Sequence record: KY684082
Strand: one strand, 5' to 3'
Length of the DNA: 43,036 nt
From: Shigella phage SFN6B
The position numbers were made by a program, and so were the translations under genes. Below the pieces are notes generated by a model, which was not told the DNA's origin, made no database searches, and saw nothing but the letters and a program-made list of their open reading frames with translations. How positions within the stretch are numbered: position 1 is the first letter of the stretch; every line of letters starts with the position of its first letter. Positions 3,299 to 7,370 of the stretch are shown here, piece by piece.

Positions 3299-3643
3299 AT
3301 GCTCACAGTAGACGAAACAGCGCTACTGTGTTGGCGCTTGCTAGAGACGCAAGGCAAGTGCGGCTGCAGTTGGGAAACATTCAAAGAGGTCCCTAATGAA
3401 CTCAAGCGAATCGTACCGGTCGAGCGTAGGCCCCTCCGAGTTCGTAAGCAGGATTCTACGGTGGTGCTCACCGCATACCGGGAGTATACAGAATCTGCCG
3501 CGCGGCAGTTGCAAGAGCACCTTGCATTCAATGTGGTTGCAGCGCTACGGCAGTATGGATATAGGGGAGCTTTTACGCGATTTAAAGCCGCAGTGCGAGC
3601 CTATTACAAGCAGCAACAACTCTCTGCGTGGTATGCACGCTGA
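3299..3643 (+). CDS. Hypothetical early protein (114 aa)
   Basis: ORF track; AAGGA Shine-Dalgarno upstream. Confidence 0.55.
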   Translation: MLTVDETALLCWRLLETQGKCGCSWETFKEVPNELKRIVPVERRPLRVRKQDSTVVLTAYREYTESAARQLQEHLAFNVVAALRQYGYRGAFTRFKAAVRAYYKQQQLSAWYAR

Positions 3644-3689
3644 ACTTTTAACGTATGATGAGATACTAGTAACACCGGAGACAAAGAAA

Positions 3690-5405
3690 ATGCAAGAGAC
3701 TAACAAAGTAAACGTAGATGCAAACGTACCTGCAAATGTACCTGCCTACGAGGGTTGGACCATCAAATTTCCAGAAGGGGCCAACGCTCTTCCGCTGAAG
3801 AAACAGATGTACTCTTCCGGGGATTACTGGTGCCAACTTCCCTACCTATCAACTCGAGGCCATGCGCGCGTGCAAAGTAACAAAACCCGTGCGCTTTTGA
3901 ATGGCATTTATATGTGGTCAAAGGTGCTGCCGGGATATATTGTAGCACTTGGCAACTTTACAGCTGCAGGAGAGGAGTTGAGTGTATATACTGGGCCGCT
4001 GGGAGCAGTTGATATTAGTGACACTCTCCTGCATAAGCTCCTTGACCGTGCAAGTACCTGCGACCGGGCATTCGGTTTATACAGCAGAACCTTCTATGAT
4101 GGCCCTGACGTAGTTACAGAGCGCGTAGTAGAGGCGGTGCAATACTTCACTGGATACAAGGTGCACAAACAGGCTATAGAGTTGTTCGAAGAGATTATGC
4201 TAGCACCTACGTACTCCCTCCGGGCCAAATACACTCGCGGCGCGTACAGTGAGCGTGATGGAGATTACTGGGCAGCAACCTTGCTTATGCAGTTGCACGG
4301 GTTCGTGGTGTCTAGGTTTGCAATCCCGCTGGGTTTTGGATTCCGAAACGGTGAGCCTGTAGTAATGCTGGGGCAGCCGCGACTACACAAAGATTATGCT
4401 GCAATTACCGAGTATCGCTGCGTGGAGATGCGCGTGGGTAAATGGCTTGCTAACTACTACGGTAGTGGGGTAGACTTCCGGGAATGTATTGAAGACCTCA
4501 AAGCTATGAATGTAGACCCAACCACGTATCTTTGTAAGACCGAAGAGGAGTGGTACAACGCATACGAGAAAGGCCCGCGTAGCTGCATGACCGGATACAA
4601 CTTCGAGTATAGCCCGGTGCGTGTATACGCTACGACGAGTCACGGCTTGCCGGATAATGGGCTGCGCTTGTTCATCCAGTATACCGGTGAACTTTTTGGC
4701 GACGACTTTAAAGTGCAAGCCCGCGCTATCGTTAACATCGAAACCAACGAATACGTCCGTGCATACGGAGATGCTGCGGACGCCATTCTACGTGCTAATG
4801 GGTATGAGCACGATACAGACTGCTTAGATGGCGCACTACTGGCACGCATTCCGCACCCAGAGAATGAAGGTGCCGTGCTTATGCCGTACTTAGACGGGAA
4901 TCAAGATGGCGTGGATGAAGAGGGGAATAATGCGTTCGTTATCTGCGACTGCTATGACTATGAAGCACAGGATGCTGACGGGTACATTTGGATTGATGAC
5001 GATCGCTGCGCTTGTACAGAGTGTGGGGAACGTTTCGACGAGGAGGACATGTACGTATCTTGTGACGGTGGTTATGTATGCTCGCACTGTATCGGTGATA
5101 CTTACGTACAGGTAGTGGGCCGCAGCGTAGTGTACCCATCATGGGATTGCTCATGGTCTGACTACCACGACTCTTGGGTACTTGACCAGGACGTAGCAGA
5201 TTGTGCTGTAGAGGGTACAGTGCATGATGAAGAGCCAATGGTGTGCGTACAAGGGTACAATGTTCTGAGTGTGCATGCCGAAGAGCACCCAGTGCACGGT
5301 ATGATTCTCACGGAGTATGCTGCGTCCGTATTGGATGAACCCTACCTCGGTAATGAAGAAGCCGAAGAAGACAAGGAAGCTAAAGCAGAACAGGAGGCAG
5401 CTTAA
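3690..5405 (+). CDS. Large early protein of unknown function (~571 aa) with C-terminal Cys-rich zinc-ribbon-like cluster and acidic tail
   Basis: ORF track 3396..5405; start moved to ATG 3690 (GGAG upstream; avoids overlap with 3299..3643); alternative ATG at 3633. Cys cluster CDCYDY...CACTECGERF...CDGGYVCSHC; C-terminus EEAEEDKEAKAEQEAA. Confidence 0.65.
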   Translation: MQETNKVNVDANVPANVPAYEGWTIKFPEGANALPLKKQMYSSGDYWCQLPYLSTRGHARVQSNKTRALLNGIYMWSKVLPGYIVALGNFTAAGEELSVYTGPLGAVDISDTLLHKLLDRASTCDRAFGLYSRTFYDGPDVVTERVVEAVQYFTGYKVHKQAIELFEEIMLAPTYSLRAKYTRGAYSERDGDYWAATLLMQLHGFVVSRFAIPLGFGFRNGEPVVMLGQPRLHKDYAAITEYRCVEMRVGKWLANYYGSGVDFRECIEDLKAMNVDPTTYLCKTEEEWYNAYEKGPRSCMTGYNFEYSPVRVYATTSHGLPDNGLRLFIQYTGELFGDDFKVQARAIVNIETNEYVRAYGDAADAILRANGYEHDTDCLDGALLARIPHPENEGAVLMPYLDGNQDGVDEEGNNAFVICDCYDYEAQDADGYIWIDDDRCACTECGERFDEEDMYVSCDGGYVCSHCIGDTYVQVVGRSVVYPSWDCSWSDYHDSWVLDQDVADCAVEGTVHDEEPMVCVQGYNVLSVHAEEHPVHGMILTEYAASVLDEPYLGNEEAEEDKEAKAEQEAA

Positions 5406-6439
5406 TGTATGGTGTTGACCTTAAACTACTGACAAAGATACTAACAACGCACCGACCTAGCTGGGGCAGTACCAAATGGTTTGAGCCGCTACTTAGTAGC
5501 GCTCTTGCTGGTGCAGAACACTACGTTAGGGACGCTCATGGTAACTACTTTGTGCTTATTGGTAACTCTGAACAGAGTGACGTAGCATTTACATCACACC
5601 TCGACACAGTGGCCCGGCCTGGTAGTGCTGCGCCAGACATTGCAATCACTAACAAGGGCATAATGTTCCTGCGGAATCCACAGGTGGCGGATTGTCTAGG
5701 TGCAGACTGCGGTGCTGGTATCTACCTGATGCTAGAGATGATTAGGCACGGTGTGCATGGGCGCTACTGCTTCTTCGTGGATGAGGAGGTAGGTTGTGAG
5801 GGCAGCAGAGCATCAGCCAAAGATGATACAGGGTTCTGGACTGGGGTCAAGGCGATGATTAGCTTCGACCGCCGGGGTGATGGTATCATTACGCATCAAC
5901 GGTACATGCGCTGCTGCTCTGATACGTTCGCAAAGGAACTAGCGGCCCGACTAGGACGAACGGAGGCGCACTTACAGAAGGGGGTATACACGGACTCCGC
6001 TGAGTTCGTAAGTATTATCCCAGAGTGCACTAACGTAGGCGTAGGGTACATGCACGAACATACACCAGACGAGGTGCTGGACTTAAACATCCTTGGTCAG
6101 GTACTGGAGCGTGTACTGCAAGCAGGCACATTCAAGCACCTACCGATTGAACGGGATCCAAAGGTAGTGGAACCGGATGCGTGGTTATCTGCCTCTGCGT
6201 ATCCTTTTGATATGTCACTAGATGTTCCCTATGCGGAAGACCCGCATTTACTTGCAGCATTCAAGGAGGTGTCACAGCTTTCTAAGCAGCAACTGATTAG
6301 TTGGGTATTGGATAACCCAGCAAGGGCGGCGGAGTACATCATGGTGTTCTCCGATTATGGCTTCAAAGAGGAACTGATTGAACTTGGCACCCGAGTTGTA
6401 GAGGACTGGGGTGGATACGAGAATATTGTGGAGGGTTGA
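5405..6439 (+). CDS. Putative MH-clan (M20/M28/M42-like) zinc metallopeptidase
   Basis: Ordered motifs matching the co-catalytic zinc peptidase pattern: SHLDTV (H-x-D), LGADCGAG (bridging Asp), FFVDEEVGCEGS (Glu-Glu), later Asp and His (MHEHT). Motif-level reading only. Confidence 0.5.
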   Translation: MYGVDLKLLTKILTTHRPSWGSTKWFEPLLSSALAGAEHYVRDAHGNYFVLIGNSEQSDVAFTSHLDTVARPGSAAPDIAITNKGIMFLRNPQVADCLGADCGAGIYLMLEMIRHGVHGRYCFFVDEEVGCEGSRASAKDDTGFWTGVKAMISFDRRGDGIITHQRYMRCCSDTFAKELAARLGRTEAHLQKGVYTDSAEFVSIIPECTNVGVGYMHEHTPDEVLDLNILGQVLERVLQAGTFKHLPIERDPKVVEPDAWLSASAYPFDMSLDVPYAEDPHLLAAFKEVSQLSKQQLISWVLDNPARAAEYIMVFSDYGFKEELIELGTRVVEDWGGYENIVEG

Positions 6440-6441
6440 TT

Positions 6442-6912
6442 ATGTCTAAGTTTAAAGTTGGTGATAAAGTTGTCCGCAAATCACCCGACGACAGTTCATC
6501 GTTTAAGAAGCACCAAGGGGATTTTGATTACTACACAGTTACAGATATGTCCCCAAGCGGCCACTGGCTGCAGTTGGACAACTTTACTATCGACGATGAC
6601 TATTACCCGTGGTGTGCAACTAACTTCGAGCTGTACCAAGAGCTGGACGACGAGCTGCCGCCTGCACCAACCTCAGTACTCTATTACCATAGCACTGCGG
6701 ATGCATATAACTTGCAGCATATGATCGTGCAACCACATTGGGAGTTAGAGGGACATCTCAGTATCGCTATCGTGAAGAGCGGTAAAAAGTTCGATCCCCT
6801 GGCTTACGGTGATGCATTATCCCTCAACCTGGAACCCGATGCAGCCTTGCAGTTGGCACATGACCTATGCCGCATGGCTATGGATATTAAACGTAAGGAG
6901 AAAGCACAGTGA
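6442..6912 (+). CDS. Hypothetical protein (156 aa)
   Basis: ORF track 6436..6912; ATG at 6442 preceded by GGAGGG. Confidence 0.6.
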   Translation: MSKFKVGDKVVRKSPDDSSSFKKHQGDFDYYTVTDMSPSGHWLQLDNFTIDDDYYPWCATNFELYQELDDELPPAPTSVLYYHSTADAYNLQHMIVQPHWELEGHLSIAIVKSGKKFDPLAYGDALSLNLEPDAALQLAHDLCRMAMDIKRKEKAQ

Positions 6913-7370
6913 AGTATGAGTACAACCCGGATACCGGGGAGATACTGCGCTATGGGAAACCGGTAGGGTCTAAGGACTCCTCCGGGTACCTGGTGGTGTG
7001 GGTGGATGGTAAGTGCTGGCGTGCCCACCGTCTGGCCTACCACCTACAAGGCTTGCCGGTACCTAGACAAGTGGACCACATTAATGGAATCAAAGATGAT
7101 AACCGGTGGGTCAACTTACGTGCAGCCACTAACTCTCAGAACCAGTACAACCGCAAAGGTTGTGCTGCATCAGGAAACCTAAAGGGCGCATACTACAACA
7201 AGGCTATGCGCAACTGGTACTCCCTAATTCGTGTAGGTGGTAAGCGTAAATACTTAGGCTCTTACCGTTCGGAAGCTGAGGCCCACGCAGCCTATGTAAA
7301 GGCCTCTCAACAAATGCACGAGGGGTTTGATGTATGGACGAGCCGTGGCTTAGAGCCTGCAAGCGCCTAG
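6909..7370 (+). CDS. HNH homing endonuclease (HNH plus AP2-like DNA-binding region), paralog 1
   Basis: VDHINGIKDDNRWVNLRAATNSQN HNH core; GTG start with AAGGAG upstream; paralogs at 13318, 24732 and 35743. Confidence 0.8.
   Translation: MKYEYNPDTGEILRYGKPVGSKDSSGYLVVWVDGKCWRAHRLAYHLQGLPVPRQVDHINGIKDDNRWVNLRAATNSQNQYNRKGCAASGNLKGAYYNKAMRNWYSLIRVGGKRKYLGSYRSEAEAHAAYVKASQQMHEGFDVWTSRGLEPASA

Follow-up and report, generated by a model that had tools for sequence, protein, structure and literature searches.

A putative lid-less MH-clan peptidase and its Cys-rich partner in the pre-replication region of a KP34-like phage

The window analysed here, a stretch of 43,036 nucleotides from Shigella phage SFN6B (sequence record KY684082), amounts to an essentially complete genome of a KP34-like podovirus (Drulisvirus, Slopekvirinae, Autographiviridae). 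Upstream of its replication genes lies an open reading frame (ORF) at positions 5405..6439 whose product, judged from its sequence, is an MH-clan enzyme, putatively of the two-metal peptidase type. The coding sequence starts with ATG, runs on the plus strand, as do all genes and motifs of the window given below with coordinates, and specifies 344 amino acids plus a stop codon; the protein, a homolog of KP34 gp11, belongs to the phage protein family PHROG 4191. It is directly preceded by the gene of a Cys-rich protein, here called the partner; the pair is conserved as a two-gene module in phages whose genomes measure about 25-62 kb.

The catalytic domain and its place in clan MH

The match to PHROG 4191 (E = 5.5e-146) covers the protein at full length, with residues 4-343 on profile positions 3-342 of 342. 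When a profile of 45 homologous sequences is compared with the PDB, PepT-like M20 tripeptidases are found at E = 1.8e-14 and 1.7e-13, with the elements HxDTV, LGADD, EE and HT aligned, and in the alignment four ligand motifs match PepT residue for residue. The catalytic domain comprises residues 1-252 (5405..6160), has the alpha/beta fold of clan MH, resembles M20 enzymes without their lid and ends with the conserved motif L246-P-x-x-R250-x-P252.

Within this domain the predicted metal ligands follow each other in the order His, Asp, Glu-Glu, Asp/Glu, His that is characteristic of the clan. The putative first ligand, H65 (codon 5597..5599), stands in SHLDTV (residues 64-69), which also contains D67 (5603-5605), and is aligned by HMMER with the His of FTSHMDTV in PepT (3gb0). 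The predicted bridging ligand D101 (5705..5707) lies in LGADCGAG (residues 98-105) opposite LGADDKAG of PepT, while E127 and E128 (5783..5788), the predicted general base and a metal ligand, sit in FFVDEEVGCEGS (residues 123-134, F123 to S134) and are aligned with VGEESG. D155 (5867..5869) in ISFDRRG would be the fourth ligand; it is located near the C-terminal end of a strand of the structural model (residues 150-157) and inside the Pfam M28 match discussed below. The fifth would be H219 (6059..6061), the second His of MHEHT (residues 216-220), which is aligned with the His of IHT in PepT.

Conservation was assessed in 85 distinct homologs with 25-45% identity, drawn from GenBank phages and IMG/VR contigs and including proteins of Thermus phage P23-45, Bacillus phage Sophrita, Cellulophaga phage phi38:1 and contigs of jumbo size. 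H65, D101, E127, E128, D155 and H219 are invariant in 85/85, as are D67, R156, D197, N210, Y215 and E223. The Thermus, Cellulophaga and Bacillus phage homologs and one metagenomic homolog all match PHROG 4191 as well. A first-pass annotation, made from the letters of the window alone, had described the ORF and its motifs and had compared them with the co-catalytic ligand pattern of M20, M28 and M42 peptidases. Direct reading of the sequence confirms the ORF and every motif, and the ligand pattern is supported by the conservation among homologs, by PHROG 4191 and by the PepT profile match. The later Asp, which the annotation had left without a number, is D155. For MHEHT the claim holds in part, since H219 is invariant while H217 varies (His in 27 of the 85 sequences). 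The annotation had also named what would speak against it, namely the lack of a predicted MH-clan fold and motif residues that vary among homologs; what was found is an MH-clan fold with invariant ligands.

Less straightforward is the assignment to a family within the clan. The domain is best described as a lid-less, M20-like MH-clan domain that fits no family cleanly. Its closest solved relatives are M20 enzymes, the Peptidase T-like tripeptidases of M20 subfamily B (Bacillus cereus PepT, 3gb0; Staphylococcus aureus SAV1512, 3rza), which carry a lid that the phage protein does not have and which do not have its extra linker and C-terminal module. D155 and H219 are separated by only 62-72 residues in all 85 sequences, and PepT residues ~157-301 (about 145 residues, including the lid/dimerisation domain) face only about 33 residues of the phage protein, so the M20 lid/dimerisation domain inserted between the fourth and the fifth ligand is absent. 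The Pfam family Peptidase_M20 (PF01546) gives no match at E <= 1, and the PepT-like model of NCBIfam reaches 18.1 bits against a cut-off of 274. The sole Pfam family above its gathering score is Peptidase_M28 (PF04389), with a marginal and partial match (23.4 against 21.3 bits, E = 5.5e-5) that spans residues 53-160 and positions 8-98 of the 193 in the profile. M28 aminopeptidases such as Aeromonas proteolytica AAP (1rtq) and Streptomyces griseus SGAP (1cp7) share the one-domain layout and a comparable ligand spacing, but M28 structures are more distant from the phage protein than those of M20. The label M28 is therefore imprecise. M42 falls short by profile (PF05343, 12.1 bits against a cut-off of 23.2) and by architecture, because H65 and D101 are only 30-57 residues apart and nothing corresponds to the insert that separates the first His from the bridging Asp in M42 TET enzymes such as Pyrococcus horikoshii TET1 (2cf4). 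The Pfam comparison proposed in the first-pass annotation has thus a mixed outcome, with M28 marginally above threshold, M42 below it and M20 unmatched. Searches of NCBIfam and PADLOC were uninformative for the peptidase, for its partner and for the gene downstream. No difference separates the protein from the PHROG 4191/KP34 gp11 family, a core gene of Drulisvirus and PhiM1-like phages, and that family has been annotated by bioinformatics only.

The Cys-rich partner and the C-terminal module

The partner gene (3690..5405) encodes 571 amino acids counted from M99 of the longest ORF, which begins at 3396; it is a homolog of KP34 gp10 and belongs to PHROG 6980, a family of unknown function. Many homologs measure about 565-575 residues, and the longest form (3396..5405) overlaps a 114-codon, KP34 gp09-like ORF at 3299..3643 by about 250 nucleotides in another frame. 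For these reasons the true start is probably M99 at nucleotide 3690, although PHROG 6980 nevertheless includes the long form. The first-pass description of the protein as Cys-rich is accurate, as it contains 18 Cys, 11 of them within the last 170 residues.

At the junction of the two genes (5392..5407) a Shine-Dalgarno sequence, AGGAGG (5392-5397), lies in the end of the partner gene 7 nucleotides before the ATG of the peptidase. The partner stop TAA (5403-5405) and the peptidase ATG (5405-5407) share one nucleotide in TAATG (5403-5407), an overlap that had been noted before and that is plain in the sequence. The junction DNA is identical in Klebsiella phage Kpn13, and every one of the 22 Drulisvirus loci shows the same overlap of one nucleotide, as do three distant loci. 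The Kpn13 record annotates the partner at 3652-5445, ending 14 nucleotides inside the peptidase gene. Given the identical DNA, a real difference at the junction was rejected; the upstream reading frame in that record must differ from that of the window, either through an insertion or deletion or through a choice made in annotation.

A functional pair had been suggested on the strength of the overlap, and the idea is supported far more strongly by the linkage of the two genes across loci. Partner homologs immediately precede the peptidase gene in Vibrio phage KF1 (E = 3e-39), in Pectobacterium phage PPWS1 (E = 3e-12) and, with overlapping stop and start codons, in a 73-kb phage contig encoding a terminase, PolA and ClpP (E = 8e-8). 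By tblastn the partner was detected at 22/22 Drulisvirus loci and, with a query of four proteins, at 31 of 57 diverged viral loci, always on the same strand and in 30 of them with a junction of -11 to +22 nucleotides; a richer query raised the number to 37 of 57. It is also present at 22 of 36 prophage-like loci in bacterial genomes, in three of which it stands downstream instead. The genes flanking the pair are conserved only among Autographiviridae relatives, which identifies the partner and the peptidase specifically as the unit that travels together. A three-gene module that would include the 114-codon gene upstream or the 156-codon gene downstream was considered and rejected, since both are conserved only within that group.

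Beyond the catalytic domain the peptidase carries a tail whose length after P252 ranges from 28 to 179 residues across the family. Its layout is an LPxxRxP motif followed by a variable, often low-complexity linker and by a helical module of about 40 residues that lies 30-49 residues from the C-terminus. In the SFN6B protein the linker comprises residues 253-294 (6161..6286), for which confidence in the model is low (predicted local distance difference test score ~45-60), and the module residues 295-334 (6287..6406), with the motif DNPARAAEYI. A regular expression describing the module matches 46 loci with the partner and none without, at a chance rate of 0.4% in shuffled tails. A hidden Markov model (HMM) of the module, scored on clusters collapsed at >=60% identity, recognises 21 of 37 partner-positive and none of 19 partner-negative clusters (Fisher p = 1.7e-5). 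The simplest reading of this co-occurrence is that the module docks the peptidase to its partner, which makes it a candidate docking element. Long family members of 500-590 residues were considered as Rosetta-stone fusions with the partner and rejected, as what they carry are low-complexity linkers.

The partner itself belongs to no family of known function. In an alignment of 20 sequences with 16-26% identity, the homologs keep an SCM motif, a Pro, an Arg, PYLD, a CxxC...CxxC element and an acidic C-terminal tail. In the SFN6B protein these include S298-C299-M300 (4581..4589), with Ser and Cys invariant, P399-Y-L-D402 (4884..4895), with P399 and D402 invariant and Y400 conserved in at least 90%, and a zinc-ribbon-like pair of CxxC motifs (C442 and C445, C464 and C467; 5013..5090) in which C442, C445 and C467 reach at least 90%. 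Searches of Pfam, NCBIfam, PADLOC and PDB sequences with the partner gave nothing significant, and Pfam searches with 20 diverse partner proteins, like a comparison of the partner profile with the PDB, returned only weak LIM or zinc-ribbon noise. The structural model, built from a shallow alignment and poor for the N-terminal 270 residues, places beta-hairpins at the CxxC...CxxC region and shows a weak resemblance to the GNAT (GCN5-related N-acetyltransferase) fold that lies below the level usually trusted, has no sequence support and is only a lead.

Proposed mechanism and competing explanations

We consider it probable that the gene, expressed from the pre-replication block, encodes an active two-metal hydrolase whose site is open for want of a lid, and that in mid-size phages this enzyme acts together with the partner on a target of the host or of the phage; the catalytic core of this proposal is the stronger part and the partner-coupled role the less certain one. 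Since the peptidase has neither a signal peptide nor a membrane segment, it should act in the cytoplasm, where it would bind two metal ions, which could be zinc, cobalt or manganese. By analogy with characterised MH enzymes, D101 would bridge the two metals, one of them being bound in addition by H65 and D155 and the other by E128 and H219, and E127 would serve as the general base that activates the water bridging the metals. This water would then attack an amide bond at the end of the substrate, releasing an N-terminal residue or an N-acyl or peptidyl group. The absence of a lid should leave the active site accessible, so that a peptide or the terminus of a protein could serve as substrate and not only a di- or tripeptide. 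The gene would be expressed from the pre-replication (early/middle) block along with the Cys-rich gene, probably by translational coupling, and its product, docked to the partner through the C-terminal module, would act on its target during takeover of the host.

Several observations weigh against this proposal. The correlation between module and partner was noticed post hoc among loci that are phylogenetically related and is suggestive rather than proven; when the clusters used for training are removed, the module HMM gives p = 0.011. The enzyme also occurs without the partner, namely at all 13 tblastn loci on contigs >90 kb and in Thermus P23-45, Bacillus Sophrita and Cellulophaga phi38:1, from which it follows that the partner is not obligatory for the enzyme. 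On the catalytic side, the geometry of the metal site is taken from alignments and not from the coordinates of the model. Nocek and colleagues reportedly found in 2014 that an engineered DapE without its lid domain (PDB 4h2k, 4onw) is inactive, which means that a site of the M20 type need not be catalytic by itself when the lid is missing; the phage enzyme may use a mode more like that of M28 or M42 enzymes, or may get help from the partner. Finally, literature searches on the gene turned up genome descriptions only and no functional, transcriptomic or anti-defence study and no test of activity, expression or phenotype, and a transcription paper on phage P23-45 does not mention gp56 by name.

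The dispensability of the partner in many phages, among them contigs of jumbo size with two copies of the gene, is also what would be expected of a stand-alone aminopeptidase that recycles host peptides for phage protein synthesis, its adjacency to the partner being mere synteny, and the broad aminopeptidase activity of M42 and M28 relatives would suit such a role. We regard this as improbable, because the linkage persists across lineages that share no other neighbours, holds where the two genes are inverted in order and is correlated with the presence of a dedicated C-terminal module. Enterobacterial hosts, moreover, already possess several broad aminopeptidases, and the benefit of a further recycling enzyme is unclear. 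The resemblance to M20 enzymes raises another explanation, that of a small-molecule amidohydrolase or deacylase like ArgE, DapE, aminoacylase or carboxypeptidase G2, which would cleave an acyl or amino-acid group off a metabolite, for instance an N-acyl amino acid or a precursor of a cofactor or of the cell wall; were the partner acyltransferase-like, the substrate might be something that the partner makes or modifies. This explanation seems unlikely to us, although it deserves more weight than peptide recycling: all characterised M20 deacylases use for substrate binding and catalysis the lid that is missing here, the best matches in sequence and structure are peptidases of the PepT type, and the GNAT resemblance of the partner stays below the usual level of trust.

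Two further explanations fare worse. The phage protein could in principle be a dead scaffold like the M28 domain of the transferrin receptor, or a one-metal enzyme of different chemistry such as a glutaminyl cyclase. Glutaminyl cyclases and pseudoenzymes have, however, lost part of the ligand set, whereas all five ligands and the catalytic Glu are retained in each of the 85 homologs compared, the pattern expected of an active two-metal hydrolase, and we hold this explanation to be very improbable. That the gene encodes a cell-wall peptidase for lysis or a virion-associated head-maturation protease, functions that generic "peptidase" labels in phage genomes often mean, is scarcely credible. The gene belongs to the pre-replication block, where it precedes those for primase, helicase and DNA polymerase, and it is remote from the genes for structure and lysis; its product, moreover, lacks the export signals mentioned above. 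MH-clan enzymes are known as exopeptidases or amidohydrolases and not as maturation endoproteases. Work on PhiM1-like phages places the gene among the early ones (PMC6115819).

A more specific version of the proposed partner-coupled hydrolase can be put forward tentatively, and we would not rate it as likely. The partner, with its Ser-Cys, PYLD and zinc-ribbon elements and possibly an acyltransferase-like core, might form with the lid-less peptidase an uncharacterised two-component phage effector, in which the C-terminal module would tether the two proteins and the partner would supply substrate recognition or the function of the lid. In the early phase of infection such a pair could modify the ends of particular proteins of the host or of the phage. 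It might, for instance, trim N-termini, acylate them or do both, and in this way change the stability of a protein or inactivate a factor with a defence or housekeeping role.

Genome setting, distribution and significance

The gene order of the window is the usual one for KP34-like phages, with small early genes followed by primase, helicase and DNA polymerase, then RNA polymerase and finally the structural genes. A scan for promoters and terminators around the gene pair found nothing exceeding shuffled expectation. No direct terminal repeats of >=60 nucleotides were detected in the window (1-43036), whereas in the Kpn13 record positions 53-277 are labelled as a repeat region; the genome ends may have been collapsed or permuted when the window was assembled.

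As an annotation the peptidase is already known, and its identification here re-derives the standard label. The KP34 homolog gp11 was named a putative peptidase in 2011 (PMC3082699), a gp11-type peptidase is among the core genes listed for the proposed genus Kp34likevirus (PMC4411677), and in PhiM1-like Pectobacterium phages the peptidase is the sole conserved early gene with an assigned function, given as IPR007484, Peptidase M28 (PMC6115819). The SFN6B protein is 100% identical to Kpn13 WJE88642.1, labelled "peptidase", and most related records carry the same label. When the region at 3690-6912 is compared with Kpn13 3652-6936, the identical peptidase is flanked by a partner with about 86% and a downstream 156-residue protein with only about 50% identity, a mosaic pattern suggestive of recent recombination whose breakpoints fall where one gene meets the next. 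Between the 156-codon gene and the primase gene the window also encodes an HNH homing endonuclease (6909-7370; Pfam HNH_3, E = 1.2e-11; PHROG 99), which overlaps the start of the primase gene at 7334. Kpn13 carries a different small ORF at the same position, which gives the endonuclease the look of a mobile insertion, variable between closely related phages.

A peptidase of this clan in an early phage operon had been called unusual in the first-pass annotation, a view that does not hold given how common the family is in phages. By tblastn it is found in 400 GenBank phage records, from phages of Klebsiella, Pectobacterium, Vibrio, Bacillus, Thermus, Cellulophaga and others, and in IMG/VR at least 577 stretches encode relatives, the contigs ranging from 4 to 476 kb. 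A profile search run exhaustively over 1.84 billion cluster representatives gave 2,588 matches at E <= 1e-30 and 8,779 at E <= 1e-3. Two viral contigs of jumbo size, of 150 kb (loci L034 and L051) and 476 kb (L056 and L084), encode two copies each, without the Cys-rich partner and without the C-terminal module. By contrast with the abundance in phages, only 36 loci were found in the genomes of 185,579 bacterial and archaeal species, and the two bacterial loci that were examined look like prophages, as an integrase lies within about 2 kb. The pair adjoins an integrase in Shimia sp. (L090, 6037-6645 and 7374-8387) and in Xanthobacter sp. (L105, 6835-7998), and in Shimia it is directly followed by a homolog of the T7 gp0.7-like protein kinase (phrog_15752, E = 1.8e-12), which suggests integrated podovirus-like prophages that keep a host-takeover cassette.

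Few genes in the early region of the KP34-like phages used against Klebsiella in therapy encode a catalytic fold that can be recognised, and the peptidase is one of them; it is a core gene and belongs to a family of thousands of phage proteins. For annotators the family calls for caution, as its domain is closest to M20 enzymes and yet lacks their lid. Modest new leads come from the conserved gene pair and from the tail specific to the partner, and together the linkage across otherwise unrelated phages and the tail that accompanies the partner turn a familiar label into a concrete, testable hypothesis.

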